The notes below the pieces were generated by a model that made no database searches, was not told the DNA's origin, and worked only from the letters and a program-made list of their open reading frames with translations. The position numbers were made by a program, and so were the translations under genes. Shown piece by piece: positions 9,980 through 48,333 of a DNA stretch of 64,000 nucleotides. The first letter of the stretch is position 1, and every line of letters starts with the position of its first letter. Source of the DNA: a virus (Duplodnaviria > Caudoviricetes); IMG/VR virus record IMGVR_UViG_3300042294_003246. One strand, 5' to 3'.

Positions 9980-10531
9980 ATGATTAACCCAACAGGAAAA
10001 AAATTAGAGAAACTTTTATTTGGAATGTTTGACGACGCCATACAAGGTGTTGATACATATAACCATAATGGTAGTATGTGGTTGATCTTTACTGATGAAA
10101 TGAAATGGGTTGTGGAATACACTAAAGAACAAACACTATGGTATAATTACTATTTCTTCAAAAACGAAATGGAAATGATAAACTTGGATTGTGTTGATAA
10201 TAAAGACCTTATTCAAAAATGGTTTGAGTCAAGATTTTTGAATAAGAATGAGGTTAAAGAAACTGACAAATCTAATTCCAATTATCGTTTGTGTGTTAAA
10301 GACACCATTCAAAATGGTGTAAAAAACACCTGCTGGAATCGTGGAAGCAAAAACACCCGAGTTAAAGACACCATTCAAAATGGGGTAAAAAACACCCGTG
10401 GATATGTAAAACAGATTGATTCGTTGGTTAAAGACACCATTCAAAATGGGGTAAAAAACACCCAAGCCCCTTACCATTCGTTATATGAGTTAGTTAAAGA
10501 CACCATTCAAAATGGGGTGAAAGAAAAATAG
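9980..10531 (+). CDS. Hypothetical protein, conserved ~105-aa N-domain plus 22-aa VKDTIQNGVKNT repeat units
   Basis: Paralogue of 21016 and 21707. Confidence 0.8.
   Translation: MINPTGKKLEKLLFGMFDDAIQGVDTYNHNGSMWLIFTDEMKWVVEYTKEQTLWYNYYFFKNEMEMINLDCVDNKDLIQKWFESRFLNKNEVKETDKSNSNYRLCVKDTIQNGVKNTCWNRGSKNTRVKDTIQNGVKNTRGYVKQIDSLVKDTIQNGVKNTQAPYHSLYELVKDTIQNGVKEK
10295..10528. CRISPR. CRISPR-like array in frame inside ORF 9980: 4 repeats (36 nt), 3 spacers (30 nt)
   Basis: GTTAAAGACACCATTCAAAATGGGGTAAAAAACACC at 10295, 10361, 10427, 10493 (last degenerate); spacers unique, exactly 30 nt. Confidence 0.7.
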
Positions 10532-10566
10532 ATTTACAAAAAAATTATTTATATATTTGTGTTATT

Positions 10567-10980
10567 ATGAAGAAGATTTATTTAGACGATGTTAGAACGC
10601 CTGTTGATAAAGAATGGATTGTTGTTCGTTCTTACGATGAGTTCGTTGAAAAAATAAATGAGATTGGTTTGAATAATATCCAACTCATTTCGTTAGATCA
10701 CGATTTGGGTGATACCGCAATTGATGAGTGGAAAAGAAATGTTTATACAAACTACACAATTAATTACGATAACATTACCGAAAAGACCGGTATGGATTGT
10801 GTTAAATGGTTGGTTAATGAATGGATGAATGGTAAACCTGTTGTTGATGTTGTGGTTCATTCACACAACGCAATTGGAAGTGGTAATATGTGTGGTTATA
10901 TCAACAACTACAGACACATCAATCGTTTAAAACAAAATTGCATTAGACTTGAGTGGGATTATACAATAGAAAAAATATAA
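10567..10980 (+). CDS. Cyclic-phosphate processing receiver-domain protein
   Basis: IYLDDVRTP and ISLDHDLG motifs, VHSHN. Confidence 0.8.
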   Translation: MKKIYLDDVRTPVDKEWIVVRSYDEFVEKINEIGLNNIQLISLDHDLGDTAIDEWKRNVYTNYTINYDNITEKTGMDCVKWLVNEWMNGKPVVDVVVHSHNAIGSGNMCGYINNYRHINRLKQNCIRLEWDYTIEKI

Positions 10981-10983
10981 GAA

Positions 10984-11508
10984 ATGGATTTAACTAAACT
11001 AACAATGGACGAACTTATTTCTTTAAGAAATAAAATTGAAGGACTTATTCATTCATATGAGGACGGTTATATCTACATATGTTCTGTTCGTCAGTTCGGT
11101 AGTGTTTGGGAAGAAAGACCAACCAGTCTGTATTCATTAAGGGAATTGTGTGATTCTTATTACGGCGACAATGGAATTGTTGATGTTTATACCAATAATC
11201 CAAATTTGGAATTTCCTGAAATGGAGTTTTATAATTATGGTGATGTTATGTATATCAATTCAGAATATGATTACAGGGAGTGGATTAAACACACTAAGGC
11301 TAAAAATCTTATTGAAGATGTAACTGAACGACTTGATGAGTGGGACAAAAGTAAAGATAAACCATTTCAATACCGACCATCTTCCAAACCAATATGGACA
11401 AGAGAAGATGTTAGTGAATGGATTAAAGAGTTTGAAAATACCAAGTGGGATTTTGTTGAACCAAGATCTATGAAGAAAGAATATTCTGAAGAAGATAGTG
11501 ACGAATAA
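10984..11508 (+). CDS. Hypothetical protein
   Basis: 174-aa ORF. Confidence 0.7.
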   Translation: MDLTKLTMDELISLRNKIEGLIHSYEDGYIYICSVRQFGSVWEERPTSLYSLRELCDSYYGDNGIVDVYTNNPNLEFPEMEFYNYGDVMYINSEYDYREWIKHTKAKNLIEDVTERLDEWDKSKDKPFQYRPSSKPIWTREDVSEWIKEFENTKWDFVEPRSMKKEYSEEDSDE

Positions 11509-11532
11509 AAAAAATATTATTATTTTTGTAAA

Positions 11533-12660: not shown

Positions 12661-12709
12661 CTTGATGGGATCACCTTTTTTACTTATCATTTAAAAAAAC
12701 AAATAAATT

Positions 12710-12976: not shown

Positions 12977-13170
12977 TGGAAAATGAATATTTGGTTCGAT
13001 TCGCAAATGAAAGTTATTATCAAACAAGATTAAAAATTGATTCATCCAAAGTTAAAGACCCTCTCGAATTAAGAGAAGAGGTATTTTTTACTATCGATGA
13101 TGTAAGAATGTCGGTGAAAAAAGAAGATTGGAAAAAGATAATAAATAAAGAAGTTAAAAATAAAATATGA
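12973..13170 (+). CDS. Hypothetical protein
   Basis: ORF, overlaps neighbours. Confidence 0.6.
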   Translation: MMENEYLVRFANESYYQTRLKIDSSKVKDPLELREEVFFTIDDVRMSVKKEDWKKIINKEVKNKI

Positions 13171-14174
13171 TGGATAAAGAATTTGAAAAACTAATTGAAG
13201 AATTAGACAACTTAGAAATTAATGAACCCATAAGTATTATGACTAAGTATTCAGATGAACCTTCATTTGATTATAATCAAGAAGAATCTTCTATAAACAC
13301 TAACTCGGCAACTCCAACATGTTGGGGAACATTACAAGACGAAGAATTTGTTCCTGCATTTAAGTCTGTAGATAAAGTTCCTTCTGGTATTTATGAGATA
13401 GTATGGAATAGACAAGTATCTCAACACACAATAAAAAAACAACCTTTTAAAACAGATGAATTATATCAGTTACCTTCTTACGAAATTCAAGACATCCTTA
13501 AAGACATCCAAAATTTTTGGGATCGTAGAGACAAATATAGAGAGTATAACTTTGTTCATAAGCGTGGGATTCTAATGTATGGTGAACCTGGTTGTGGTAA
13601 GTCAGGTATCATCCAATTAATATCAAAACAACTAATTGAAAACGACGGGATTATTCTAAACATTAAAGATCATGACGATGTAGAATACTTTATTGACTTT
13701 ATTGCGACTTTTAGAAAGATTGAACCAAATAGACCATTAATTGTATTATTGGAAGACATTGACTCAATCGCAGGGGAAAGTAATCACTCAACAAGTAAGT
13801 TGTTGAATATATTAGACGGTGTTAAACAGATCGAAGATGTTGTATATATTGCAACAACCAACTATCCTGAGAAACTACAAGAACGTATTACAAATCGACC
13901 ATCTCGTTTTGATCGGAGATATAAAGTTGAACTTCCAAATGAAGAAATTAGAGAAGCATATATTCGTCACAAATTAAAAGATGAGGATTTGAAAAATGTA
14001 AACGTCTCTGAGTGGGTAAAAAGAACTGAAGGAATGTCTCTTTCACACTTGAAGGAAGTCGTAATTTCAACTATTGTTATGGGTAGAGAATTTGAAGAAG
14101 TTATGGATAATTTGGAAGGGTTGAAAAAAGCTCCAACAATTAAAGGATCAGGTAAAGTAGGTTTTGGGCGATGA
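13167..14174 (+). CDS. AAA+ ATPase
   Basis: Walker A GEPGCGKS, Walker B LLEDID, ATTNYPE, RPSRFDR. Confidence 0.9.
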   Translation: MMDKEFEKLIEELDNLEINEPISIMTKYSDEPSFDYNQEESSINTNSATPTCWGTLQDEEFVPAFKSVDKVPSGIYEIVWNRQVSQHTIKKQPFKTDELYQLPSYEIQDILKDIQNFWDRRDKYREYNFVHKRGILMYGEPGCGKSGIIQLISKQLIENDGIILNIKDHDDVEYFIDFIATFRKIEPNRPLIVLLEDIDSIAGESNHSTSKLLNILDGVKQIEDVVYIATTNYPEKLQERITNRPSRFDRRYKVELPNEEIREAYIRHKLKDEDLKNVNVSEWVKRTEGMSLSHLKEVVISTIVMGREFEEVMDNLEGLKKAPTIKGSGKVGFGR

Positions 14175-17423: not shown

Positions 17424-17870
17424 ATGAAAATAATAATAACAGAAAGTCAGTATAATCTTTTATTTGAAAATAAAAAAAATCAATCTTTAATTGATATTAT
17501 TAAAGAAGAAGGTTGGGAATCTGCCGCTGAATTAGTTGGAGGTATTGAGAATCTTAAAAAATTGACAGGAATTGAAACTCCTATAGATTTTTTAAATATT
17601 TTTACTGATTTGGATGTTGTTCAGAGTGAAGAAGAACCTAATTGGACTTTATTTAGGTATGAAAAAAAAAATAATGTAATGATTTACGATAGAAAAAATA
17701 ACAATGTTTATATATATTATGATGTTATTTGGCCATTTTTAGAAGAAGGTTTTGATCTTAAAAACTCTGAAATACAACAACTTACAGAAGAGTGGTTGTC
17801 TGAGGCTTACAATTTGAGGGGAGTAACAACTTATCCATCTATAATGGGTCGGCACTCATTAGTTGTCTGA
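17424..17870 (+). CDS. MKIIITE-leader hypothetical protein ending in a CRISPR-like unit
   Basis: Paralogue of 47879. Confidence 0.75.
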   Translation: MKIIITESQYNLLFENKKNQSLIDIIKEEGWESAAELVGGIENLKKLTGIETPIDFLNIFTDLDVVQSEEEPNWTLFRYEKKNNVMIYDRKNNNVYIYYDVIWPFLEEGFDLKNSEIQQLTEEWLSEAYNLRGVTTYPSIMGRHSLVV

Positions 17871-17880
17871 GGCTTACAAT
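17795..17880. CRISPR. Mini-array: 36-nt type VI-B-like repeat, 31-nt spacer, 19-nt partial repeat
   Basis: GTTGTCTGAGGCTTACAATTTGAGGGGAGTAACAAC (17795-17830); exact copy of first 19 nt at 17862-17880. Confidence 0.65.
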
Positions 17881-21015: not shown

Positions 21016-21585
21016 ATGAAAAATCCATCAGGAAAAAAATTAGATAAGATTTTGTTCAAACTATTTGACCAAATGATTGAAGGTGTTGACCAATACAATC
21101 ATAGTGGTAGTTTATGGATCATCTTTACCAATGAACGACAATGGGTTGTTGAATATACCGAAGGAGGAACTCTATGGTATAACTACAAACTATTCAAAAA
21201 TGAAATGGAATTGGTTGGTATGGATTGCGTTGAAAATAAAGAATACATAACCAGATGGTTTGAATATAGATTTTTGAATAAACCAAAGGTTGATAAAACT
21301 TGGGACAATCCGGTAGATGTGTGGTATCAAATTGAAGACACCATTCAAAATGGGGTGAAGAACACCAAGGTTAGGTCCGCATTGCGCAGGATATCAGTTG
21401 AAGATACCATTCAAAATGGGGTGAAACACACCGGCGGAAAATTGGCTTCGCTGGCCGACCTGGTTGAAGACACCATTCAAAACGGGGTAAAGGAGACCCA
21501 AGAGTGGCGTTTGGATGCGACTCATTATATTATAGACACAATTGAAAATGGAGTGAAACAAACAAAACGAAGTTATGATGGTTAA
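21016..21585 (+). CDS. Paralogue of 9980 with in-frame repeat-spacer units
   Basis: MKNPSGKKL N-domain plus xEDTIQNGVK units. Confidence 0.8.
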   Translation: MKNPSGKKLDKILFKLFDQMIEGVDQYNHSGSLWIIFTNERQWVVEYTEGGTLWYNYKLFKNEMELVGMDCVENKEYITRWFEYRFLNKPKVDKTWDNPVDVWYQIEDTIQNGVKNTKVRSALRRISVEDTIQNGVKHTGGKLASLADLVEDTIQNGVKETQEWRLDATHYIIDTIENGVKQTKRSYDG

Positions 21586-21702
21586 AGAAAACAGAGAACG
21601 AAATATGTCGTTGAAAATGGGGTGAAACACACTACAGGAACATCAACTGACTTACGATATAAAAGGGTTGAATATACCATTCAAAACGGAGAAAAAATTA
21701 AA
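21331..21702. CRISPR. CRISPR-like array: repeats at 21331, 21397, 21463, 21529 and degenerate 21598, 21667
   Basis: 36-nt repeats; spacers 30,30,30,33,33 nt; first three spacers 47-63% GC; array continues past the ORF stop. Confidence 0.7.
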
Positions 21703-21706
21703 TAAA

Positions 21707-22897
21707 ATGAATAATCCATCAGGAAAAAAATTAGAGAAACTTGTCTTTGGGTTGTTTGACCAAATGATTGAAGGTGCAGACAAGTATATTACAGAACAAG
21801 GTTCAACTTGGTTGATCTTTACCGAAGACAAAAGATGGGTGGTTGAATTCACAAAAGATAAAACTTTGTGGTTCAACTATAACCTATTTCAAAATGAGTT
21901 AGATCTAGTCAGTAAGGACTGCACTCAAGAAAGAGATTTGATCAAGAACTGGTTTGAATCAAGATTTTTGGGTATTGATGTGGTTGAGGAAAGTTTAAGC
22001 ACTGCTGGAAAACCATTGAAGGTTAAAGATACCATTCAAAATGGGGTGAAACACACTTGGGATTTAAATGCGGATGAAATTTCTGCAGTTAAAGACACCA
22101 TTCAAAATGGGGTAAGACACACCGATTATTTTGAATATACTAATAATACCTTAGTTGAAGATACCATTCAAGAGGGGGTGAAAGAAACCAATTACAAAAT
22201 TGGTTACCGAAAAGGTGGTATTGAAATCGCAATTCAAAATGGTGTAAAAGAAACACGAACATTCAATTCACCACCAATTAAATACATTGAAGACACCATT
22301 CAAAATGGGGTGAAAGAAACAACACCTAGTGGTTATTTGGGTTCAATGGAGATGAAAGGGAAAATAGTTCATCAAATTGAATCTCCAAAACAAAATAATG
22401 AGGTTGAAGACACCATTCAAAATGGGGTAAGACACACCGAAGTAGATGGGATGAGGATAAGGAGTGGGGTTAAGGACGCCATTCAAAATGGAGTAAAGGA
22501 CACTGTGTTAGCAAAAACGGATAGATTAGTCGGTATTGAAGACACCATTCAAAGTGGTATTAAAGACGTATCTGATAGACCATTCACATTTGGATCAAGT
22601 ATTGATGATGCCATTGAAAATGGTGTTAAAGAAACTAGAGAGGTAACATTCTTGAACCAAATGTTTATTGAAGAAACAATTGAAAAAGTTACACCAGATG
22701 GTGGAGTTGAAATTCCTTCTGATATGAAAGTTGGAACTGGATTGATGAATATGGTAAAAGAATTACGTGATAATGAATGGAGAACATTTGAACATCACGA
22801 TAATTGGATTAAAAACGAACATTATCCAAATCCAACATTTGAACAACAATTTGATACAGGTAATGCTTATAAAGAAATGTTAAAAACTAAAATTTAA
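21707..22897 (+). CDS. Paralogue of 9980 with ~10 repeat units and unrelated C-terminal tail
   Basis: Start placed at ATG 21707 (MNNPSGKK) by paralogy. Confidence 0.8.
   Translation: MNNPSGKKLEKLVFGLFDQMIEGADKYITEQGSTWLIFTEDKRWVVEFTKDKTLWFNYNLFQNELDLVSKDCTQERDLIKNWFESRFLGIDVVEESLSTAGKPLKVKDTIQNGVKHTWDLNADEISAVKDTIQNGVRHTDYFEYTNNTLVEDTIQEGVKETNYKIGYRKGGIEIAIQNGVKETRTFNSPPIKYIEDTIQNGVKETTPSGYLGSMEMKGKIVHQIESPKQNNEVEDTIQNGVRHTEVDGMRIRSGVKDAIQNGVKDTVLAKTDRLVGIEDTIQSGIKDVSDRPFTFGSSIDDAIENGVKETREVTFLNQMFIEETIEKVTPDGGVEIPSDMKVGTGLMNMVKELRDNEWRTFEHHDNWIKNEHYPNPTFEQQFDTGNAYKEMLKTKI
22022..22702. CRISPR. CRISPR-like array: repeats at 22022, 22088, 22154, 22220, 22286, 22403, 22469, 22535, 22601, 22667
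   Basis: Eight 30-nt spacers and one 81-nt; repeats degenerate toward the right. Confidence 0.65.
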
Positions 22898-22901
22898 AAC
22901 T

Positions 22902-23552
22902 ATGATGAAAATTGAAGCAAAAAAAGACGGTAAAGGAAACATTGTAATATCGGAAGATTCCTTTGAAATGATACTGGCTTGTTTAGACAATCAAAAATTT
23001 GTTGGTGAACAGCCACAAAATGGTGATTCGCTTTCGGTAGGCGAAGACAACTATTGGAAAGGACAAGAAGATATTCAAAACACTATTGACCATTATAATA
23101 GAGAATGTAGAAAAATATTACATCAAAAATATGTTTTAAGAACAGAATGTGATGGTTATTTTCTTGCAAAAAAATACGAACATCAAACAGAAGATGCTGA
23201 ATGGACTGGTGAAGATGTTGGATTAGTATATGAACTATTCAAAGATACAAGAATAATTTATAATGAAACAAGAGATTTATTACCATTGGATGGCTCGGAA
23301 AAAATTATAGAGGGAACTGAACCTATTGGTAAAACGAAAGATGGTTGGATTGCAGTTAAACCTGAACCAACACCTTGGTTAATTGAAAGACCATTAAGGT
23401 ATGATTATCAATATTTGACAATTTCAGAAGACGGTAAAACAAATAGAACTTGGAAACAAGATGAAATTAACAAAATTCAAGAATTATTTAATGGTGGGGG
23501 AGAAAAAAGAAAAGAAAAAGATATTACAGACGAACCTTCAATCGAAGACTAA
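22902..23552 (+). CDS. Hypothetical protein
   Basis: 216-aa ORF ending just before the first attC. Confidence 0.7.
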   Translation: MMKIEAKKDGKGNIVISEDSFEMILACLDNQKFVGEQPQNGDSLSVGEDNYWKGQEDIQNTIDHYNRECRKILHQKYVLRTECDGYFLAKKYEHQTEDAEWTGEDVGLVYELFKDTRIIYNETRDLLPLDGSEKIIEGTEPIGKTKDGWIAVKPEPTPWLIERPLRYDYQYLTISEDGKTNRTWKQDEINKIQELFNGGGEKRKEKDITDEPSIED

Positions 23553-23564
23553 ATGTAGTATTAC

Positions 23565-23658
23565 TGCTAACGTTGAAGCATTTGTGTCAGGCGGGCATAG
23601 ATGCAACTTAATATTAACCGCAAGCTGTCCGCCCGCTTGCACAAATGCAGTGTTAGCT
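23565..23658 (+). other. attC site 1
   Basis: TGCTAAC...GCATTTGTGTCAGGCGGGC / GCCCGCTTGCACAAATGC...GTTAGCT. Confidence 0.85.
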
Positions 23659-23669
23659 GCCGTTTAATT

Positions 23670-23876
23670 ATGGAAAGAACAATTAGAACATTAAAAGAAA
23701 TGCGTGAAAAGGCTGAAAGGTCTTTTATTGAAAACTCTATCATTGTCCACAGGGCAAGTTTGGACAGTCCAATACCCGATACAAAGTCGGATTTGGAAAT
23801 GATTATTGAGTTGAACCAAGCAATATCAATTTTGCAAAATGCTACTATGGCGAAGTCTGTCGTAAATGGCAGCTAA
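23670..23876 (+). CDS. Cassette 1 ORF (hypothetical)
   Basis: ATG 23670; TAA lies in the R'' box. Confidence 0.7.
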   Translation: MERTIRTLKEMREKAERSFIENSIIVHRASLDSPIPDTKSDLEMIIELNQAISILQNATMAKSVVNGS

Positions 23877-24001
23877 CGAAAAAGGCTTTGTGCAGGTGGG
23901 GATTTGGAACACGAAAGTTTCAAATCAGTACAAAAGCCTATTAGAATTACTGCTGTTTAATTTAGCAATTCAGCCCCACTTGCACAAAACCGATGTTACC
24001 T
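23871..24001 (+). other. attC site 2
   Basis: AGCTAAC...TTTGTGCAGGTGGGG / CCCCACTTGCACAAA...GTTACCT. Confidence 0.85.
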
Positions 24002-24058
24002 GCCGTTTTTTGTCGGTAACTCACAGATTTGATTTATAAACAATTAAAATAAAGTAAA

Positions 24059-24418
24059 ATGGAAAATTTAAAAGTAGTAAAAATTGATTCAGATTCATTA
24101 GAATTTGATAATGGAATGATTTTATTTTCAGACCACGACCAACAATGCTGTGAGCATCACTATTTGTCTTTGTCAGATTTGACATTGGATGATTTTAAAG
24201 GATTGGAATTTGATTTGTCAAATGATGATTTCTTTGAAAGAATAGAAGATTATGGAATAGCCTTAAAGCCTAAAAATGGACATCCTGTTAGAATACCTGG
24301 TTATGGCTCAAACAACGGCTACTATTCATCAAATCTTGCTTTGATTATAACTAATACTGATGGTCGTGGTGTATTCAAGCAATATGATATTACTGAATGT
24401 CAAGAATGGAACGATTAG
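24059..24418 (+). CDS. Cassette 2 ORF (conserved phage hypothetical)
   Basis: HDQQCCE...GYGSNNGYYS motif. Confidence 0.75.
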   Translation: MENLKVVKIDSDSLEFDNGMILFSDHDQQCCEHHYLSLSDLTLDDFKGLEFDLSNDDFFERIEDYGIALKPKNGHPVRIPGYGSNNGYYSSNLALIITNTDGRGVFKQYDITECQEWND

Positions 24419-24437
24419 CGGTCTGTCTTAAAATGGC

Positions 24438-24569
24438 AGGTAACGGTACTTGTGTAAATTTCAGTGCCGTAAAATTAGTATAAACTTTAAATTAAAAATA
24501 AAATGAAAAATCAAGTAGAAAATTATCAACAAAGCACTGCACAGGCATTGAATTTACACAATGTTAGCA
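24438..24569 (+). other. attC site 3 (contains start codon of next ORF)
   Basis: AGGTAAC...TTGTGTAAATTTCAGTGCC / GGCATTGAATTTACACAA...GTTAGCA. Confidence 0.85.
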
Positions 24570-24736
24570 GTAGTGCCAAAGGTGGACTTCGTAAAATTAA
24601 AGATGCAGAGCAACCTTGCCTACATCCTGACCATAACCCACCGATGCACATTTATTTAACAGCAGGAACTTATGAATATACCTGCCCTTCTTGTGGCAAG
24701 GTTACGACATTTACAGTACCATTGATTACGTTTTGA
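24503..24736 (+). CDS. Cassette 3 ORF (small CxxC protein), starts inside attC3
   Basis: CLHPDHNPP...CPSCG. Confidence 0.7.
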   Translation: MKNQVENYQQSTAQALNLHNVSSSAKGGLRKIKDAEQPCLHPDHNPPMHIYLTAGTYEYTCPSCGKVTTFTVPLITF

Positions 24737-24745
24737 TGGCATTAC

Positions 24746-24830
24746 TGCTAACGGTTTCAAATATGAGAAGTAAATTTTACCTATAAAAATTTGGAAAATC
24801 AAAATTTATTTCTTATATTTGTTGTTATAA
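24746..24830 (+). other. attC site 4
   Basis: TGCTAAC...CAAATATGAGAAGTAAATTTT / AAAATTTATTTCTTATATTTG...GTTATAA. Confidence 0.85.
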
Positions 24831-24870
24831 GTATGTATTATTTTTGTTTTACCTTATAAAAAAATTAAAT

Positions 24871-25146
24871 ATGGAAAATTATATTATTAAAACCCCTGAA
24901 ATAGAGTTTAATAAAGAAGATGTATCAGATTATAAGTTCTTAGGTACATTTAAAGATGTTGATAGTGGAATACCTAAAGTAATTGTATCAAAAATAGAAG
25001 ATACATTAAAAAATTTAGATTCTAATTTGAAAGTCACACCAATGATGGTTGACCCAGAAACTTTAGATATTGTATTCGGTATATTAGAAACAAATGAAGA
25101 AAGTGTTAAGTTAAAATATCATATAAAAATCACAAAACAAAAATAA
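24871..25146 (+). CDS. Cassette 4 ORF (hypothetical)
   Basis: ATG 24871. Confidence 0.65.
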   Translation: MENYIIKTPEIEFNKEDVSDYKFLGTFKDVDSGIPKVIVSKIEDTLKNLDSNLKVTPMMVDPETLDIVFGILETNEESVKLKYHIKITKQK

Positions 25147-25152
25147 TATTAC

Positions 25153-25273
25153 TTATAACGGTTGCAAATATAAGCAGTTATTAACGAAACTTAATTAAAA
25201 GAACAAAATTAAATATTAACCAACAACATTTATTTGGAAGTAATGAAATAATTGCTTATATTTGTTGTTATAA
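25153..25273 (+). other. attC site 5
   Basis: TTATAAC...CAAATATAAGCAGTTATT / AATAATTGCTTATATTTG...GTTATAA. Confidence 0.85.
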
Positions 25274-25285
25274 AACGTTATTTAT

Positions 25286-25486
25286 ATGGAAATAAAATTT
25301 TATTGGAACGGAAGTTTTGCTGGTACTAATCACAGTATGACTATAAATAAAAAAGAGATTAGATTAGGTGGAGTTGTTTCAAACGAAGATGAAGCAAAAC
25401 TGGAAGCAATTGAAATACTCAAAAGAGATTATAATATTGACTACAATGTTGATGAAATAAAATTTGAGTGGGGTGGTCGTTTATAA
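25286..25486 (+). CDS. Cassette 5 ORF (hypothetical)
   Basis: ORF fills cassette. Confidence 0.65.
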   Translation: MEIKFYWNGSFAGTNHSMTINKKEIRLGGVVSNEDEAKLEAIEILKRDYNIDYNVDEIKFEWGGRL

Positions 25487-25490
25487 TGTT

Positions 25491-25622
25491 TTATAACGGT
25501 TGAGTATAACCGAAGGTGGGGATTAAAAGTGCTAAACCCAGACTTACCTACAAAAGTAAATTAGAAGCACAATAACTGATTTTGGGAACTACCGCCCCAC
25601 TTTTGGTTATACTTTGTTAGCG
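25491..25622 (+). other. attC site 6
   Basis: TTATAAC...GTATAACCGAAGGTGGGG / CCCCACTTTTGGTTATAC...GTTAGCG. Confidence 0.85.
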
Positions 25623-25642
25623 GTATGTAAAATTTACGTATT

Positions 25643-25828
25643 ATGAAAGAAATAGAATTGTTAATCAGAAGAGAAAATGCTTTATCTAAGCAAAATTTGT
25701 TATACCAATTATTAGGTAAATTTGGTGATGATTTACCTAAACAGATACAAGATGCTGTAAGATTGATGGCAGAAGAAGAAGGTAGAGAGTATAACAAATT
25801 AGGTACTAAGGTTGCGGAACGGTTGTAG
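25643..25828 (+). CDS. Cassette 6 ORF (hypothetical)
   Basis: ORF fills cassette. Confidence 0.65.
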   Translation: MKEIELLIRRENALSKQNLLYQLLGKFGDDLPKQIQDAVRLMAEEEGREYNKLGTKVAERL

Positions 25829-25841
25829 TAAATTTTATTAC

Positions 25842-25924
25842 CGCTAACGTTTTGCGGCTTTGTGTCAGGCTGCGAAGCGTTGGCATTGAGCGGTCGGGCA
25901 GCTTGCACAAAACCGCTGTTATAC
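25842..25924 (+). other. attC site 7
   Basis: CGCTAAC...TTTGTGTCAGGCTGC / GCAGCTTGCACAAA...GTTATAC. Confidence 0.85.
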
Positions 25925-25960
25925 GCTGGCACGGTTAATTAACAACAAAATTTAATTGAA

Positions 25961-26338
25961 ATGAATATAGATGACTTATTTAAAATCGAACCACAAGAGC
26001 CATACAAGATGAGCCAAAAAGAGTTCGTTGAAAAAACAAAATCTGTTTTAGAAAAAATCTACAATGCTTATTCAAAAGGATGGCAAAGTAGGGTTTTGAG
26101 AGATGGAGAACACCCCGAAGAAAGTGTATGTGATAAATGCACTGGTTGTGGTGTTTTCTTGGAAAATGGAGAAGAAAGAGATTGTGTTCAAGATAGAGAA
26201 CAAGGAGATTGTTTTCACAGATTTTGTGATTACGAACAGGTAGGAATGGATTTAGAAACTCATCTTGCAGATATATCCGATTTACTTTCGGTAGATGAAA
26301 TTGTCAATACGGAGCAGAATGGTAGTGCTTGCGTATAA
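25961..26338 (+). CDS. Cassette 7 ORF (Cys-rich hypothetical)
   Basis: TAA in R'' box. Confidence 0.7.
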   Translation: MNIDDLFKIEPQEPYKMSQKEFVEKTKSVLEKIYNAYSKGWQSRVLRDGEHPEESVCDKCTGCGVFLENGEERDCVQDREQGDCFHRFCDYEQVGMDLETHLADISDLLSVDEIVNTEQNGSACV

Positions 26339-26386
26339 CGTCCGATGATAAACAATCGTTTTAATGTTGTTTATCATTTGTTATGT
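26333..26386 (+). other. attC site 8 (short type)
   Basis: GTATAACGTCCGATGATAAACAATCGTTTTAATGTTGTTTATCATTTGTTATGT. Confidence 0.85.
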
Positions 26387-26495
26387 GTAGTAATTTTGTG
26401 GGTGGAAATTCTTAATTTGAACTATTTATATATAAAATCTCAGATATATTCAGTTCTGAGATTTTATATATAAACTTAAAATAAAAGACAGAACT

Positions 26496-26768
26496 ATGAA
26501 AGAGAATAGAATTAAGAGATTTAAAAACTTCTTAAAAGAAGGAAAATCATATTTAGATGGTTCTGGTGAAAGAGGATTTTCACCGATGGAAATCAAACAA
26601 CTAAATATAGGTGATAAAATAACTTTTCACTTTAATAAATCTTTAATGGACGGTGTTATAACAGATAAAGAAGAACTTCAAAACGGAGACACTTTGTTTA
26701 GTATAGAAACAGAAAAAGGAGTATTGAAGAAAAGTCATAGAAATTTAGAAGTTTATAAAATTTATTAG
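26496..26768 (+). CDS. Cassette 8 ORF (hypothetical, IKRFKNFLKE leader)
   Basis: ORF preceded by TATTTAT motif. Confidence 0.7.
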   Translation: MKENRIKRFKNFLKEGKSYLDGSGERGFSPMEIKQLNIGDKITFHFNKSLMDGVITDKEELQNGDTLFSIETEKGVLKKSHRNLEVYKIY

Positions 26769-26790
26769 TAGGTGGGTAAAAAATTATTAC

Positions 26791-26924
26791 ACATAACGGT
26801 TGGGCGGTTGGCGTTCGTTGCCGACTTTGGAACACGAAACTTTAATTTAAAAACAAAATTTGATATGGAAAACAACACTTCAATTAACCACGAAAACGGC
26901 AATGACGCTAACCGCTTGTTAGCG
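26791..26924 (+). other. attC site 9 (contains start codon of next ORF)
   Basis: ACATAAC...GCGGTTGGCGTTCGTTGCCG / CGGCAATGACGCTAACCGC...GTTAGCG. Confidence 0.85.
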
Positions 26925-27146
26925 GCTGGTGCGGATTTAATCGGAAAGTTTTACGAAATGTTAAATCTTGATGATTCCGTAATGCACCGTTTTAAAATAA
27001 AGCATGTACGCACAGAAACGACTCCTGCTATTGACCATTCCGATGGCAGTCATTCACCAAGCAAAACACATGTTTTGGTTTCGGCAGAAGGTTCAGGGTG
27101 GTTTCGTTTGTATGGCGGTAAAACTGATAGAGTGGTGGAGGAGTAG
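26865..27146 (+). CDS. Cassette 9 ORF, starts inside attC9
   Basis: ATG 26865, MENNTSINHENGNDANRLLAAG. Confidence 0.65.
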   Translation: MENNTSINHENGNDANRLLAAGADLIGKFYEMLNLDDSVMHRFKIKHVRTETTPAIDHSDGSHSPSKTHVLVSAEGSGWFRLYGGKTDRVVEE

Positions 27147-27153
27147 CACTTGC

Positions 27154-27207
27154 CGCTAACGTCCGATGATAAACAATCGTTTTAATGTTGTTTATCATTT
27201 GTTATAA
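27154..27207 (+). other. attC site 10 (short type)
   Basis: Same core as attC8. Confidence 0.85.
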
Positions 27208-27224
27208 GTTGTTTTTTATTATAT

Positions 27225-27641
27225 TTGAATATGGTAGATTTAATAGTAAAGGAAATTGATGACTTTTATATGAATGAATTCAATCTTTTAAAAGAAGAAG
27301 TTCAAAAAAACATAAAAGTTGAGATTATAGATAGTTCAAAATTTGGGGATATAGGTGGGAGATTTAATTTTTTGAAACAGATAATATATGTAAATTCAGA
27401 ACAATCTAATGAGAATATGTTTCTAACACTTCTACATGAATATGGACATTTTCTAACTTTTAGAGATTATATCTATGTATATAATGTTTGTCCTTACGAA
27501 TATGGTAGAAATGTATTAAAACGAGAATTAGGTGCGTATTATCATGGGTGGAAATTCATAAAATCTAACTCAATTGGAGTTTCAAAAAATAAATGGAGAG
27601 AACACCATATTCAAATATTAAAAGATTATGAGATATTATGA
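27225..27641 (+). CDS. Cassette 10 ORF, HExxH metallopeptidase-like (ImmA/IrrE-like)
   Basis: LTLLHEYGH and downstream E..AY motif. Confidence 0.65.
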   Translation: MNMVDLIVKEIDDFYMNEFNLLKEEVQKNIKVEIIDSSKFGDIGGRFNFLKQIIYVNSEQSNENMFLTLLHEYGHFLTFRDYIYVYNVCPYEYGRNVLKRELGAYYHGWKFIKSNSIGVSKNKWREHHIQILKDYEIL

Positions 27642-27648
27642 AAATAAC

Positions 27649-27722
27649 TTATAACGTTTTGCACATACACGCTGTGAGCGTTGTATTGAGGGCAGGGAAA
27701 TAGCGTGTATGTGCTGTTATAG
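27649..27722 (+). other. attC site 11
   Basis: TTATAAC...GCACATACACGCT / AGCGTGTATGTGC...GTTATAG. Confidence 0.85.
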
Positions 27723-27774
27723 GCTGTATTTAAAAGTTTTTAGCGAAGGAATTAACAATTAAAATAAACATAAA

Positions 27775-28332
27775 ATGAAAAAAGTAAAAGAAGCATACGA
27801 TGAAATTTTAAAAGCATTACATAAACACAGAGAAATTTGCGTTTTTGATGTAAGTGAATTGGAAAGAAAAGCCAAAACACATTTATTTGGACTTGAACTG
27901 AAAGAAGTTTACGGGCTAAATATTGACTCTAAACAAATTAAAAATATGGATTGGGTTAGGTTTGGAGAATATAGGGCGATTGGGATGTGGGGCGAAAAAC
28001 ACAGAAGAACTATAATTTGGAGCGTTGATGGAATACAGCCCGAAGATGAAATGTTATTACAAATATGCTTTCCAACTGGTGCATACATTTTTGGAGAAGA
28101 TTATGCCGTAAATTTCTTTCAAAAGTTTTGGCTTGAATTAAAATCATTTACGCCTGATTACATAGACGAAGTAAATCTCGGATTATATTGGAAATTAGAA
28201 AACGCAAAAGATGTTTTTAACTCGTTTGATTTGCTTTTAAAAAAGTACTACGAACTTAATAAAGAAGATGCGAAACAAAGGAGAATTGAAAAGATGAAAA
28301 AAGAACTTGAGCAACTTGAAAACTCTAAATAG
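27775..28332 (+). CDS. Cassette 11 ORF (hypothetical)
   Basis: 185-aa ORF. Confidence 0.75.
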   Translation: MKKVKEAYDEILKALHKHREICVFDVSELERKAKTHLFGLELKEVYGLNIDSKQIKNMDWVRFGEYRAIGMWGEKHRRTIIWSVDGIQPEDEMLLQICFPTGAYIFGEDYAVNFFQKFWLELKSFTPDYIDEVNLGLYWKLENAKDVFNSFDLLLKKYYELNKEDAKQRRIEKMKKELEQLENSK

Positions 28333-28362
28333 TGCAATGGCAAAAAAACTTTTAAATATTGC

Positions 28363-28416
28363 CTATAACGTCTGATGATAAACAATCGTTTTAATGTTGT
28401 TTATCATTTGTTATAT
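28363..28416 (+). other. attC site 12 (short type)
   Basis: Same core as attC8/10 with one C>T change. Confidence 0.85.
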
Positions 28417-28492
28417 TCAGTTATTTTTTCAATTATTTCAAAAAACCGTTTTTTTTTTATTAATATATAGATTATAAAAAAAAATTAAAACT

Positions 28493-28825
28493 ATGAGAAA
28501 ATTAAAATTTTTAAAAACATTTGAATCTCTTTTGGAAGATGATTTCTCTAAAGAAAATATATTGGACAATATTTTAAGTAAAATAGAGAAAGAATTTATG
28601 AATTCACCTATTAAATTTACAGAAATACTTAAAAGAGGAGATAATAGTATCTACATTAAATATGAAATTGACTGGGAGATGCCAGAGACTATGGAAGATT
28701 GGTGGGATTATGAGGAATTTATAGAAAAACATTTAAATAAATTATCAGATAATTTGAATATATTTGAATATAATTATGATTTAACTAGTATTAGAATATA
28801 TCCCCGTAAAAATAAAAATAATTGA
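28493..28825 (+). CDS. Cassette 12 ORF (hypothetical, LKTFESLLE leader)
   Basis: ORF fills cassette. Confidence 0.7.
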   Translation: MRKLKFLKTFESLLEDDFSKENILDNILSKIEKEFMNSPIKFTEILKRGDNSIYIKYEIDWEMPETMEDWWDYEEFIEKHLNKLSDNLNIFEYNYDLTSIRIYPRKNKNN

Positions 28826-28955
28826 ATATAACGGTCGCAGATATGCCCAGTTTGGGATTAAATAGTATAAACTTTAAATTAATATAAAATGAACAAAGAA
28901 GAACAAAATTTGAATAACGCAGAGAACCCCAAATTGGATATATCTGATGTTAGCG
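28826..28955 (+). other. attC site 13 (contains start codon of next ORF)
   Basis: ATATAAC...CAGATATGCCCAGTTTGGG / CCCAAATTGGATATATCTG...GTTAGCG. Confidence 0.85.
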
Positions 28956-29125
28956 GTAGTTATTTATGGATTCCTGTAACGGAGCGACTACCTGAAACCG
29001 AAGATTACTATGCAGTTAGATTTGAAAACGGCATTGAAGATGAAAAACCTTTTAGGATTAGACCAAAGAAAAATATCTTCGGTTTTATGACTATGGAGAA
29101 AGTTACACATTGGGCGGTTCTATAA
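28889..29125 (+). CDS. Cassette 13 ORF, DUF551-like, starts inside attC13
   Basis: WIPVTERLPE...VTHWA. Confidence 0.7.
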   Translation: MNKEEQNLNNAENPKLDISDVSGSYLWIPVTERLPETEDYYAVRFENGIEDEKPFRIRPKKNIFGFMTMEKVTHWAVL

Positions 29126-29129
29126 TTAC

Positions 29130-29184
29130 CGCTAACGTTTTGCGTGTATAAAATCGTTTTAATGTTTTATACACGCTGTTAGCA
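29130..29184 (+). other. attC site 14 (terminal)
   Basis: CGCTAAC...GCGTGTATAAAA / TTTTATACACGC...GTTAGCA. Confidence 0.85.
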
Positions 29185-29404
29185 GTAGTACGGTAATTAA
29201 CCACAAATGCTCATTCGGAGAACTGAACCTTTTTCTTTTCTTTTTTGTGGGTTGGACAAAATAAATTTGAAAAATTTAAAAATAAATAATATGAAATTAG
29301 AAACAATTGAAAATGGAGTTAAAGATGGGATTTGATAAAAAAATATTAGAAAATGATGGGTTGTTGGATGTTGAATTAGATAATGGGGTTTACAAATATA
29401 GTCT

Positions 29405-43306: not shown

Positions 43307-43819
43307 ATGAATAAGTTTGATTTAACCGAAAAATTGAAAGAAGAATTAAAAAAAAGAAATCTTTGGGAACAAGAAGATGATGAAGATAATGATGATAATG
43401 AGTCTGATGATAATCAAGATGACGAAGATTCAGACGAAGATTCAGAAAATCATAACGAAGATTTCTGTGAAATGGTTTGTCAGTTATTACACTCACAAAC
43501 ACAAATTCATATTTTCCATTTAGGGACCAAATCATATGCCGAACATAAAGCATTACAGGGTTATTACGAAGGTATTGATGCTTTAACTGATGGTCTAATT
43601 GAATCTTATCAGGGTAAATATGGTCTTTTAACAAATTACAAATCATATAAGAATCAATCATACAAAAACAAAAACCAAGTATTAAAATATTTTACAAGTT
43701 TATTAAATATGATTGAAGAAAAAAGAGAATCGGTTGAGGACTCTTACATCCAAAACCAAATTGATACGGTTCAAGAATTGATTTATTCAACAATGTATAA
43801 GTTGAAATTTCTTAACTAA
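43307..43819 (+). CDS. Ferritin-like DUF5856 protein with acidic N-terminal linker
   Basis: Q.HIFH..T.SYAEHKAL..YY....L.D.L.ESYQG.YG. Confidence 0.75.
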   Translation: MNKFDLTEKLKEELKKRNLWEQEDDEDNDDNESDDNQDDEDSDEDSENHNEDFCEMVCQLLHSQTQIHIFHLGTKSYAEHKALQGYYEGIDALTDGLIESYQGKYGLLTNYKSYKNQSYKNKNQVLKYFTSLLNMIEEKRESVEDSYIQNQIDTVQELIYSTMYKLKFLN

Positions 43820-44634
43820 TCTATTTCGTAAATATTATTTATTACATTCAGAGGATCTCCTTCACAATCACCTTCATAATTTCGGCATAGTTGGTCGACT
43901 TCAATCTTGTCGTCAACCTCACTGATATCAAGTAATATTGGTTCTGAATGATATATCATATTAACTTGATCATCGTTCAAGAATGTATCTACAGGTAATG
44001 ATTTAAGTTCAGGGTTCAAACCAAAAAAATCAATTTCATCTTCTGTATAGTATTCATCACTTGATTCATAGTCACCATTTCCATCACAATAATCACAATC
44101 AACTTGTCCATAACCATCACATCTATCACAGCCAAATTCACCTTTACCATCACACCAAGAACATTCAATTTCACCATTTCCTTGACAATCTGAACATGGT
44201 TCACCATCTACTTCACCAGATCCATCACAGTTTCTACATTCTTCAGTTCCATTTCCTGAACATCTATCACAATCTACATCACCACTACCATCACATGTGC
44301 TACAATATTCAGTTCCTGATCCATCACATTCATGACAAGTTATATCACGATAACCCAAATCTCTATAATGATACATTCCGATGTTTATAAGATTACCACG
44401 AACTTTAGAAAAAGAAGATTCAATATCTTTAGTTCGTGAAAAGAAGTAAACCATAAACGCGATCTCTACTTTTTCTATTCTTTTAACATTCTTCAAAAGA
44501 AGTTTCAATAGTTCATCACTATTGATATGACTCATAATTTGTTGAACATTCATATCATTATCACCATGTTCATCAACTAAATGATTATAAACTTGTTTTG
44601 TGAATACTTTATATTTTGAAGGTTGTAAGGACAT
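43816..44634 (-). CDS. Protein with DnaJ-type CxxCxGxG zinc-finger repeats
   Basis: Eight tandem CxxCxG[N/S/K/Y]G motifs; no J-domain HPD. Confidence 0.75.
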   Translation of the reverse strand: MSLQPSKYKVFTKQVYNHLVDEHGDNDMNVQQIMSHINSDELLKLLLKNVKRIEKVEIAFMVYFFSRTKDIESSFSKVRGNLINIGMYHYRDLGYRDITCHECDGSGTEYCSTCDGSGDVDCDRCSGNGTEECRNCDGSGEVDGEPCSDCQGNGEIECSWCDGKGEFGCDRCDGYGQVDCDYCDGNGDYESSDEYYTEDEIDFFGLNPELKSLPVDTFLNDDQVNMIYHSEPILLDISEVDDKIEVDQLCRNYEGDCEGDPLNVINNIYEID

Positions 44635-45314: not shown

Positions 45315-45337
45315 AAGTATTTATAATAAAAGTTTAG

Positions 45338-46075
45338 ATGGAACTAACAGACAAACAAAAACATGATTTAAGAAGATTTTCTTTGATACTAAATTCCTTG
45401 AACATGGAAGATGGTGTAGAATGGGTATATAGACATTATGATGACTGGGAAAGTGATTATCCTGACGGACCTTATTATAGAAATAAAAATGTAAAAGGTG
45501 AATTAGATTTTTTACCAGGATCAATAGGACCTTTGTTTGATGAAATAAAAGAAAATTTTGATACTGATCTTTTTTATAATGATTACTACGACAATTACAC
45601 AGGAGGTCTTCAGATATTTGTAAACGCCGAAAAGAAAATGTTAATTGTGAAATATTATTATTACACAATGATCACAGAGGATAGCAGAATAGAAAGATCA
45701 TTCAAAGAATTATCTGAAACGACTAATCCATGGAGAAGGGGTGAAAGAGAATTAACCAAACTTACAAATGAAGACTTTTTAAACAGAATGAAAGAAGAAT
45801 ACGGTTCTTATGTTGAATTGAAATATGATGGTAGTGGTGATAGTGGGTGGATTGATGATAATGTAGATAGTGATAAAGGAAGTAAAGTTTCAACTAATCA
45901 ACTTGAAGATATTGCGTATGAGGCTTTAGAATTGTTTCATGCGGGATGGGAAATCAATGAAGGATCAAGCGGGACAATGACATTTAATTTTGAAAATCAA
46001 ACTTTTACTGTTGAACACTATCAAAATATTGAAGATGAAGCTGAAGACTTCTATAAATCTTTTTCCTTTGCTTAA
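45338..46075 (+). CDS. DUF6878-like protein
   Basis: YDGSGDSG...GWEINEGSSG. Confidence 0.65.
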   Translation: MELTDKQKHDLRRFSLILNSLNMEDGVEWVYRHYDDWESDYPDGPYYRNKNVKGELDFLPGSIGPLFDEIKENFDTDLFYNDYYDNYTGGLQIFVNAEKKMLIVKYYYYTMITEDSRIERSFKELSETTNPWRRGERELTKLTNEDFLNRMKEEYGSYVELKYDGSGDSGWIDDNVDSDKGSKVSTNQLEDIAYEALELFHAGWEINEGSSGTMTFNFENQTFTVEHYQNIEDEAEDFYKSFSFA

Positions 46076-46939
46076 ATGAACAAGTTAATTAAAGAAGAAA
46101 TACTAAGAATAAATGAGTTAATGAATACAAAAATTCTTAACGAATCGGAATATAAAGAATGCTCAAGATTTTCAGATTCTCCACAGAAATTACTTGTTTG
46201 TAGAAAAATCGCATCACTTAAAAGTTGGTTACACAAAGACGATGGATTTGGAATGAAAAATGTTATAAATAATAAAATTGAAGATTTAAAAACCGACATT
46301 CCTCAAAACTTAAAACAACAATTTATTCAAGGGGCAAACTTATTGTATTCACTAAATAAAATAAATGAAAGACAAAGGGATTACTTTATAGATAATAAAG
46401 TTAATTCAGCTAAATTGGTATACATAAACGGTGATTGGCAATTAATTAATAAGTTAAACACAAACTATTCTGATTTGGCAGAAATGTTAACAGATATGAT
46501 TTATAAAGGTGGAGATAGGGCTAGACCAATAATTCAAAATATTATTAGAGATCCTAAAGCTGCTTTGTCATCAATACAACCCAAAATAATAGAATTAGTT
46601 GATAAGTATTTTGAGGATCCTAATGTGTTAATTGACTATACAAAAAATATAGAAAGATCAACATCTATAGGTGAAATTGCTGAAAAACAAGTTGAAGATA
46701 AGTTAATCACAAAAGGTTTTACAACCGATTACGCTGGAGGTAATGGCGATCTAATCGATATGTCTTTTGGGACAGATTTAATCATGACATCACCGGAATA
46801 CGGGACAAAAACAATCCAAGTAAAAAATTCTGAAAAGGCTTGGAATAAGTCTGATGAATATCCTTACGTTGATTGGGTTATAATTTCAAACCCTTTTACC
46901 ATTTATGATAATAAAACAAAGGAAGTTGTTGAATTATGA
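46076..46939 (+). CDS. Hypothetical protein, possible PD-(D/E)xK nuclease C-terminus
   Basis: D...GTDL...IQVK. Confidence 0.45.
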   Translation: MNKLIKEEILRINELMNTKILNESEYKECSRFSDSPQKLLVCRKIASLKSWLHKDDGFGMKNVINNKIEDLKTDIPQNLKQQFIQGANLLYSLNKINERQRDYFIDNKVNSAKLVYINGDWQLINKLNTNYSDLAEMLTDMIYKGGDRARPIIQNIIRDPKAALSSIQPKIIELVDKYFEDPNVLIDYTKNIERSTSIGEIAEKQVEDKLITKGFTTDYAGGNGDLIDMSFGTDLIMTSPEYGTKTIQVKNSEKAWNKSDEYPYVDWVIISNPFTIYDNKTKEVVEL

Positions 46940-47496
46940 AAATAATAATATCAGAACACCAATTTAATTTTCTTAACGAAAGTGATGTTAATAGAAATAT
47001 TGATGCTATCAAAAAGTATTGGAAAAGTGAATTGAAAAAAGGAAATCAAATTAGATTTAATAAAGACGAACTTGAATATTGGGGTATTATTAAAACTTCA
47101 GATGAAATACATGCTCAATTAGCATTTCAGATATTAGTTGGAGATGAGGAGTTCGCTAAAAAATTCATAAACAAATTATTAAATAAAACATTTTCAACAA
47201 AAGACTTTAGTGATAGAATTGTAGGTGGTTATGATTTTGAATGGATTATTACTCAAATGAATTATCAAGATTTTGATTTCTTTTTGTATGGTCAAACACT
47301 ACCAGGTGGAACTGTTAGTCTAATTATGATGGATGGTAGAAATCTGACTTTACAGGAAGCTTTAGAAGACGAAGATATTGGTTGGGAAATTCAAGAGGAA
47401 GTTAACAACGTTGTTCAGGACTGTATGAACGAAATAATTTTACCGGCCACAGGTTATGATGTAGAAGTTCCGGTTATTTATATTGCAGAAGAATGA
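46936..47496 (+). CDS. MKIIISE-leader hypothetical protein
   Basis: ORF. Confidence 0.7.
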   Translation: MKIIISEHQFNFLNESDVNRNIDAIKKYWKSELKKGNQIRFNKDELEYWGIIKTSDEIHAQLAFQILVGDEEFAKKFINKLLNKTFSTKDFSDRIVGGYDFEWIITQMNYQDFDFFLYGQTLPGGTVSLIMMDGRNLTLQEALEDEDIGWEIQEEVNNVVQDCMNEIILPATGYDVEVPVIYIAEE

Positions 47497-47879
47497 AAAT
47501 AATAATTTCAGAACGACAACAAAAGTTATTAACCGAGTCAAAAAAACTTGAGTCGGCACAAAATCTTATTGATCAGGCATTTGAGGAATTAAGAGAAAAC
47601 TGTGAAAAAAATTGGGTTGAACAATATGCTTGTGATCAAATGGAAACCGTTGAAGAGATTAAAGTTGTTGCATCTGAAAAAGGATCAGCGACCACAAGAG
47701 GTCAAAAAACTAATTTTTGGTTGATTGAAGTTGACATATATTATTCATCATTAGGATATACACCTTTTGAAGATTTTATTTATCAAATCCAATGGGAAGT
47801 TAGAGAAATTGTCGGATCAAGAAATATTATTATAACCATCCGAGGTACTATAAACTCAAACAAAGACCTAAACTGGTAA
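47493..47879 (+). CDS. MKIIISE-leader hypothetical protein
   Basis: ORF. Confidence 0.7.
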   Translation: MKIIISERQQKLLTESKKLESAQNLIDQAFEELRENCEKNWVEQYACDQMETVEEIKVVASEKGSATTRGQKTNFWLIEVDIYYSSLGYTPFEDFIYQIQWEVREIVGSRNIIITIRGTINSNKDLNW

Positions 47880-48322
47880 TGAAAATAATAATATCAGAAT
47901 CACAATATAATTTACTTTTAGAATCAAAGTTGAAACAAAATCTTAAACAGGAAATTAAAGATTTTGGAGTAAAAGATACTGCTGAACTTGTTAATGGTTT
48001 CGATAATTTAATGGAAATTTTAAACATAAATTCTCCGATGGATTTTTTACATTTGTTTGATGACTTGGATGTTGTTCAAAGTGAAATGGACCCTGATTGG
48101 ACTTTATTTCGATATAAACCAAAACATAATTTGATGGTTCACAATAGAAAAAATAGAACTGTTTTCATTAATTACGAAGAAATTTGGAAACCTTTATTTG
48201 ATACTGGTCTTTTCGATCCTGACATAAAGGAACTTACAAAAGAGTGGTTGTCTAGTGTCTACAACTTAAGGGGAGTCACAACCGAAAGGTTTTATCAAGC
48301 TTCTCCATGGTTAGTTGTCTAG
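47879..48322 (+). CDS. MKIIISE-leader protein, paralogue of 17424, ending in a CRISPR-like unit
   Basis: Shared FLHLF.DLDVVQSE..WTLFRY...WLS..YNLRGVTT. Confidence 0.75.
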   Translation: MKIIISESQYNLLLESKLKQNLKQEIKDFGVKDTAELVNGFDNLMEILNINSPMDFLHLFDDLDVVQSEMDPDWTLFRYKPKHNLMVHNRKNRTVFINYEEIWKPLFDTGLFDPDIKELTKEWLSSVYNLRGVTTERFYQASPWLVV

Positions 48323-48333
48323 TGTCTACAATT
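48247..48333. CRISPR. Mini-array: 36-nt repeat, 31-nt spacer, ~19-nt partial repeat
   Basis: GTTGTCTAGTGTCTACAACTTAAGGGGAGTCACAAC (48247-48282); first 18 nt recur at 48314. Confidence 0.6.

Follow-up and report, generated by a model that had tools for sequence, protein, structure and literature searches.

CRISPR (clustered regularly interspaced short palindromic repeat) arrays are normally non-coding memories that are read as RNA. The DNA considered here, a stretch of 64,000 nucleotides (nt) from a virus of the Caudoviricetes (IMG/VR record IMGVR_UViG_3300042294_003246; the whole stretch is hereafter the window), raises the questions of why units resembling such arrays lie inside the coding sequences of phage genes, where their spacers come from and by what means they are inserted. 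Five open reading frames (ORFs) and two repeat types are concerned, all found at the positions given in the original prediction, an earlier reading of the sequence alone. In three genes starting at 9980, 21016 and 21707 (genes A, B and C), each type-1 unit comprises a 36-nt repeat and a unique 30-nt spacer and is always in frame. The two type-2 genes, starting at 17424 and 47879, close with a 31-nt spacer set between a full 36-nt repeat, which has GTTGT...ACAAC ends, and a truncated one. For neither repeat type did shuffled controls produce a match. These are probably CRISPR-type arrays in phage genes, filled with host DNA by a Cas1–Cas2-like integrase acting in trans and diversifying the type-1 protein.

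Source of the spacers

Thirteen protospacers, seven for type-1 and six for type-2 spacers, were found in a single Bacteroidota genus, with identities from 25/30 to 31/31, exact spacer boundaries and unrelated flanks. They lie in chromosomal genes, and the arrays are repeat-spacer arrays in the CRISPR sense, as had been proposed. Joint Genome Institute (JGI) metagenome contigs were scanned with spacer 21433-21462 of gene B, which matched at 30/30 in two 12-kb contigs of 42-45% G+C (L112 and L114); one 12-kb protospacer contig carries a Por_Secre_tail gene. Stepwise genome searches yielded three 2.5-2.7-Mb genomes that are 90-96% identical to that contig, and the arrays were compared by BLAST with five genomes, namely these three and two neighbours. 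The same spacer is also present at 30/30 in genome G526. In the contigs as in this genome the protospacer lies inside a gmhA-like gene, and in the contigs its flanks are unrelated to the repeat. Copies of the gmhA-like protein of the source bacterium occur in samples that also hold related phages.

Four type-1 spacers of the window were matched (30/30, 29/30, 28/30 and 25/30). Besides spacer 21433-21462, these are spacer 10331-10360 of gene A, at 29/30 in genomes G602 and G687; spacer 21367-21396 of gene B, at 28/30 in four genomes and antisense in a capA-like gene; and spacer 10397-10426 of gene A, at 25/30, all 5 differences being synonymous in the frame of the host gene. The other three type-1 matches (30/30, 29/30 and 29/30) belong to strain L004, and six of the eight type-2 spacers of the sister strain L081 were matched, two of them at 31/31. 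As a specificity control, the 25 units of a divergent relative were compared with the same five genomes and gave no match, nor did the window's own two type-2 spacers match these host-like genomes. One window type-2 spacer gave no match in IMG/VR, the GenBank phages searched held neither a relative nor a protospacer, and chance matches were all that came of comparing the spacers with the window itself, with 80 related loci and with a 304-kb relative that is complete.

Long chromosomal reading frames contain each of the seven type-1 protospacers and also those three type-2 sites at which such a frame could be followed, and the gmhA-like and capA-like protospacer genes are conserved among several of the genomes; transfer therefore went from bacterium to phage. 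Of the type-1 protospacers, four are sense and in frame, two are sense and out of frame, and one is antisense. The four in seven that are sense and in frame are not significantly above what an open-frame filter alone would give (binomial calculation by hand). The mixed orientation and phase fit a scheme in which pieces are captured at random and those that leave the frame open are then selected.

Reading frame, repeat conservation and unit turnover

The three type-1 genes share a 105-amino-acid N-terminal domain (N-domain), the first repeat beginning 315 nt past the ATG in all of them, and the period within the window is 66 nt except for one step of 117 nt. The repeat is translated as [V/I][E/K]DTIQNGVK[H/E/N]T. 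Gene A (9980-10531, plus strand) comprises the N-domain (9980-10294) and repeats at 10295, 10361, 10427 and 10493, with 30-nt spacers. Gene B (21016-21705, plus strand) has the N-domain and four repeats at 21331, 21397, 21463 and 21529. Its stop codon at 21583-21585 is the product of a frameshift relative to the orthologues in the near-identical strains L001-L004, and degenerate repeat remnants continue downstream of it to about 21705. In these four strains the same DNA (21529-21705) continues as further degenerate units that overlap the start of gene C. Gene C (21707-22897, plus strand) has the N-domain, nine repeats (22022, 22088, 22154, 22220, 22286, 22403, 22469, 22535 and 22601) and a tenth that is split at 22686; the repeats at its 3′ end are degenerate and retain the peptide motif. 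Relative to L001 and L003, an insertion of about 6.6 kb (22686-29308), with the 14-bp duplication GAAACAATTGAAAA at both of its ends, interrupts the last repeat unit of gene C. It fuses the gene to new sequence and leaves the orphaned second half of the unit stranded at 29294-29332 on the plus strand.

Spacings and stop codons were counted over the type-1 arrays of the 80 related loci and the window, with 219 unique 30-nt spacers. Among 903 spacings of 57-72 nt, 810 are exactly 66 nt, and all 903, together with wider gaps of up to 255 nt, are multiples of 3. An in-frame stop occurs in none of the 219 spacers, against 27-54% in the other five frames. The type-1 arrays therefore appear, from sequence, to be translated or at minimum held translatable. 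These counts agree with the gain of 22 residues per unit that had been predicted: only in-frame, stop-free units persist, and each surviving unit would therefore add 12 constant residues and 10 from captured DNA.

The repeat is constrained at the nucleotide level as well. ACC and GGG make up about 86% and 75% of their codon families in the type-1 repeat, compared with 13% and 10% in 22 other genes of the window, and these rare codons and synonymous sites are fixed across the family, although the N-domains are only 40-50% identical between phages. This fixation shows that the nucleic-acid constraint first suspected from comparison of the two repeats is real. Decayed 3′ repeats retain D-x-I-x-N-G-V-K through synonymous changes, and the type-1 repeat is therefore under constraint at the level of the nucleic acid, DNA or RNA, as well as at that of the protein. 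We also reproduced the identities that had been reported: the two repeat types agree at 19/36 positions, and their minus strands agree with a quoted Bergeyella-type repeat at 20/36 and 22/36. A Weeksellaceae genome contains this quoted repeat without a single change, in arrays whose period is 66 nt. When sequences were shuffled with the four terminal bases fixed, these identities were reached in 0.4-4% of trials, and the likeness to type VI-B repeats, judged by sequence, is real but modest. The VI-B criterion is a conserved fold with a poly-U loop. For neither phage repeat is the folding energy better than that of shuffled sequence; the ends of the type-2 repeat could pair, and no Rfam family matches either repeat.

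Type-2 loci follow other rules. The first type-2 gene (17424-17880, plus strand) carries a full repeat at 17795-17830, a spacer at 17831-17861 and a 19-nt truncated repeat at 17862-17880; the full repeat makes up the last 12 codons named for the ORF, and the truncated copy gives the stop codon. The second (47879-48331, plus strand) has a variant full repeat at 48247-48282, a 31-nt spacer at 48283-48313 and a truncated repeat at 48314-48331. Each partial repeat matches the variant of its own gene's full repeat, so that the two co-vary. The period at these single-spacer loci is 67 nt, and because it shifts the partial copy into another frame, the copy supplies the stop, being read GTT GTC TGA or TAG. 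In L081, type-2 arrays of five and three spacers (28, 30 and 31 nt) occupy orthologous and duplicated loci, with full repeats that are mutually identical, a truncated terminal repeat and no spacer in common with the window. Type-2 spacers overall measure 28-32 nt, mostly 31 nt, with periods of 64-67 nt. The L081 arrays are out of frame past the first spacer, and selection on protein therefore cannot explain them. Orthologues of the second type-2 gene (L106-L111) keep the flanks, each with a different 31-nt spacer. Both type-2 genes belong to a class of paralogous small genes (17424 and those in 46936-49759) that have a common N-terminal leader, MKII(I/L)(S/T)E.Q..L..E, and unrelated bodies.

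Whole units are gained and lost between near-identical strains, and the arrays are polar. The N-domains and 3′ units of strains L001-L004 are those of the window, from which these strains differ by whole units in the 5′ part; in gene C, likewise, the 3′ units are common and the 5′ units different. The gene B unit with spacer 21433-21462 occurs in the window only and is absent from these strains. Over 50 distinct arrays, the mean number of mismatches to the consensus repeat rises steadily from 3.4 in the 5′ fifth to 8.8 in the 3′ fifth. The expectation of polarised spacer gain thus held for the variable 5′ units and the decaying 3′ repeats, and failed in that at least one gain was internal. Of the general marks of a CRISPR array, near-identical repeats, unique spacers of near-constant length, protospacers and polarity are present. 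In phage G004 (L017/L102), two type-1 arrays on opposite strands (9885-10528 and 13138-13679) have one identical repeat-spacer unit in common, and units therefore also move or convert between paralogous arrays. A 30/30 protospacer inside the same phage was rejected, as it proved to be the unit common to the second, opposite-strand array.

The inserting activity and the use of the arrays

Each new unit consists of a 30-31-bp piece of DNA and a fresh 36-bp copy of the repeat, the traced sources being the chromosome of the likely host. The best-kept repeats, taken as the youngest, adjoin the body of the ORF, whereas older units have decayed towards the 3′ end. At the type-2 loci the opening repeat and its spacer encode the C-terminus; the 31-nt spacer shifts the frame, the next repeat gives a stop, and the remaining array is left untranslated. 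In the mechanism that we propose, insertion may be the work of a Cas1–Cas2-like spacer integrase acting in trans in infected cells on fragments of the degrading host chromosome, and most likely supplied by a minority of host strains that possess a class 2 adaptation module.

The host genus itself has II-C-like arrays with GTTGT...ACAAC repeat ends, 82% of their spacers measuring 30 nt and 16% measuring 29 nt. These arrays agree with the phage units in terminal motifs and spacer length and differ from them in repeat length and the 31-nt preference of type 2; with type 2 only the GTTGT...ACAAC ends are held in common, the host repeats being 47 nt. Long II-C-type arrays of up to 64 such repeats were seen in members of the genus (L136, L137, L139 and L140), and none of 139 host-genus CRISPR spacers targets this phage family. 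In Flavobacterium columnare, VI-B (Cas13b) arrays are filled in trans by the II-C Cas1–Cas2 (bioRxiv 10.1101/092577; PMC8092290), an adaptation between systems with different repeats (PMC8092290). The common terminal motifs and spacer length, taken with this precedent, therefore favour a host class 2 module that is met only occasionally.

Several observations weigh against this reading. No integrase was identified, the integrase and recombinase families not having been searched in the three complete relatives. Cas1 is missing from all five of the nearest genomes and occurs in only 5 of the 101 that represent the likely host genus, and the arrays beside it have 47-nt rather than 36-nt repeats; host Cas1–Cas2, named as the integrase in the original prediction, was to this extent not borne out. 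Host-genus spacers measure 30 or 29 nt, against mostly 31 nt in phage type 2. The flanks of the 13 protospacers revealed no clear protospacer-adjacent motif (PAM), the sole hint being a 3′ G in five of six type-2 cases, and most older spacers are without a match. Spacer 21433-21462 was gained internally and not at the first repeat. The array allele of the window was unchanged in lake samples of 2016, 2020 and 2024, turnover therefore being slow, which fits an occasional encounter with a host module. Related arrays in contigs of one lake metatranscriptome are suggestive only and no proof of transcription.

The rarity or absence of Cas1 in the likely host lineage and its 47-nt repeats, the type-2 spacer lengths unlike those of host arrays and the lack of a PAM are equally what would be expected if an unrecognised phage enzyme or replication process inserted the units, with the N-domain or another jumbo-phage protein taking part. 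We regard a phage-encoded inserting activity as a serious rival to the host module, the identity of the integrase being inferred, though as a full account it seems rather unlikely. Every type-1 array lies in cis with an N-domain that is modelled confidently and resembles no known fold, and the family is widespread (142 viral contigs), both in its favour. Set against it are the results from three complete relatives of about 300 kb, in which no Cas1, Cas2 or reverse transcriptase was found; five related phage records held no RVT_1 domain. An alpha/beta domain of about 100 residues is, moreover, an unlikely integrase, and the 36+30 geometry and GTTG ends fit class 2 arrays of Bacteroidota.

What the phage might gain from host-filled arrays is suggested by structure prediction. 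AlphaFold2 models the N-domain as a helix, four strands and two helices (pLDDT, the predicted local distance difference test, about 90 over residues 6-88), and searches of the PDB and of the AlphaFold DB clusters gave nothing significant for this fold. A distant relationship between the N-domains of the two subfamilies had been suspected by eye; hhalign gave E = 0.17 and a probability of 0.4%, which is not significant, and the idea was not upheld. With a 20-homologue alignment, the low-confidence model of the type-1 tail (pLDDT about 60) is a series of beta-hairpins, with the Asn-Gly of the repeat at one turn and spacer-encoded residues at the other. The tail may thus be a beta-hairpin meander in which constant Asn-Gly turns alternate with variable, spacer-encoded turns, and acquisition would therefore diversify the phage protein. 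Tentatively, spacer acquisition could be viewed as a protein-diversification engine in which a CRISPR-type integrase writes random loops of 10 residues, encoded by captured host DNA, into a hairpin protein; the type-2 loci would then be an untranslated form, ancestral or parallel.

The arrays could instead act mainly as RNA, either as guides that turn Cas13b, Cas9 or a phage effector on host genes or as decoys, the reading frame being secondary. The matches to host genes and the largely untranslated state of the type-2 arrays speak for such a role, as does the precedent of huge phages, which carry arrays without cas1 or cas2, often without effectors, and with some spacers against host chromosomes (Al-Shayeb et al., 2020; PMC7162821). 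The present system resembles theirs in the jumbo phage, the absence of detected adaptation genes and the spacers matching a probable host chromosome. It differs in that the arrays lie inside ORFs, type 1 being in frame and stop-free and the first type-2 repeat encoding a C-terminus, in that no effector was recognised among the large ORFs of the complete relative G001 and of the window, and in that the repeat matches no known host array.

Type VI-B arrays, the other precedent, have 36-nt repeats with 5′-GUUG and CAAC-3′ ends and 30-nt spacers (bioRxiv 10.1101/092577), and the type-2 repeat has this length and these ends as GTTG...CAAC. The phage arrays also resemble them in their spacers of about 30 nt, 66-nt unit and lack of a cas1 of their own, and in being 20-22/36 identical to a real Weeksellaceae repeat. 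They differ in the CACC end of type 1 and the mostly 31-nt spacers of type 2, in being coding sequence with spacers from the host and not from invaders, and in that no cas13b turned up: PADLOC gave none among the large ORFs of unknown function in G001, no search aimed at cas13b having been made. Neither Pfam nor PADLOC matched a Cas effector in the large ORFs of G001, and no cas genes were seen among those of the window. In 185,579 species genomes no array with either phage repeat was found, the only hits being chance matches in TerC-like genes; the proposed link to Cas13b through antisense CRISPR RNAs or decoys gained no support. Few genomes of the host genus have an adaptation module; of the seven type-1 spacers six are sense, so that RNA from the plus strand could not pair with the corresponding mRNAs; the repeats give no more sign of folding than shuffled sequence does; and the strict type-1 frame constraint calls for a reason at the protein level. 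A mainly RNA-based role therefore appears unlikely.

It is less probable still that host adaptation machinery integrates off target at chance repeat-like sites in the phage, to no gain of the latter, with purifying selection removing the events that break the frame. This would account for spacers drawn from the most available DNA in the infected cell, the mixed orientation, the missing PAM and the slow turnover. If integration were harmful, however, synonymous escape would be easy, and yet the rare codons are kept across phages with 40-50% identical N-domains; arrays also reach 20 units, and a single phage can hold several paralogous array genes. An ordinary protein tandem repeat with fast-diverging linkers shuffled by homologous recombination, to which the 22-residue type-1 period, the conserved peptide motif and the units common to paralogous arrays would lend themselves, is scarcely credible and already contradicted by the protospacers, as the linkers reproduce 30-bp stretches of bacterial genes exactly, with sharp boundaries, and are unrelated to one another, the type-2 periods of 64-67 nt lie outside the reading frame and the repeats decay in a polar manner.

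The carrier phages and the meaning of the arrays

The window is phage DNA of 31% G+C, with genes for an RNA ligase, a thymidylate synthase and a Y-family polymerase. Its 1346-residue protein (1984-6024) contains a CHU_C-associated Ig-like domain and has a weak match, just under the Pfam cut-off, to the type IX secretion C-terminal sorting domain, which indicates a Bacteroidota host. The type-1 protein has 142 relatives in IMG/VR viral contigs, three of which are genomes of 273-304 kb (CheckV completeness 93-100%), and one complete relative encodes a T4-like portal, a tail sheath and CHU_C and SprB domains of Bacteroidota type. The type-1 family is widespread in lake jumbo phages, and its carrier is a Bacteroidota myovirus of about 300 kb. 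Rfam, Pfam and PHROGs gave nothing informative for either repeat or for the five array-gene proteins. Elsewhere in the window, a Cys-rich protein encoded on the minus strand (43816-44634) has CxxCxGxG zinc-finger repeats and a 66-nt tandem repeat at 44190-44316. It is a protein repeat of the ordinary kind whose period equals that of the arrays, to which it makes a useful contrast.

Mini-arrays and solitary repeat units carried by viruses (RNA anti-CRISPRs) take over the repeat of their host, and the spacers of mini-arrays target rival viruses. The window's type-2 loci resemble them in consisting of a repeat, one spacer and a partial repeat, with cas genes not found, and differ in that no host array carries the phage repeat and the spacers come from host housekeeping genes. 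As in diversity-generating retroelements, a short segment of a phage protein would be diversified by a dedicated nucleic-acid mechanism; unlike them, the present system has no reverse transcriptase and no template repeat, and inserts foreign DNA in place of mutagenic copying. No paper on arrays that are kept as coding sequence came up in full-text literature searches.

In this widespread family of lake jumbo phages, then, a repeat-spacer architecture filled with captured host DNA is kept as protein-coding sequence. The 36-bp repeats, host-derived spacers and defined candidate host genus offer substrates for tests of how class 2 adaptation chooses its repeats. If the captured segments matter as peptides, they represent a new viral route to protein diversity and, should the diversification reading be true, phages would have, next to the diversity-generating retroelements, a second natural means of targeted protein hypervariation. 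If it is as RNA that they count, the phage bears guides directed at its host and has no effector that could be recognised. In both cases a spacer-integrating activity acts on phage genomes in nature.

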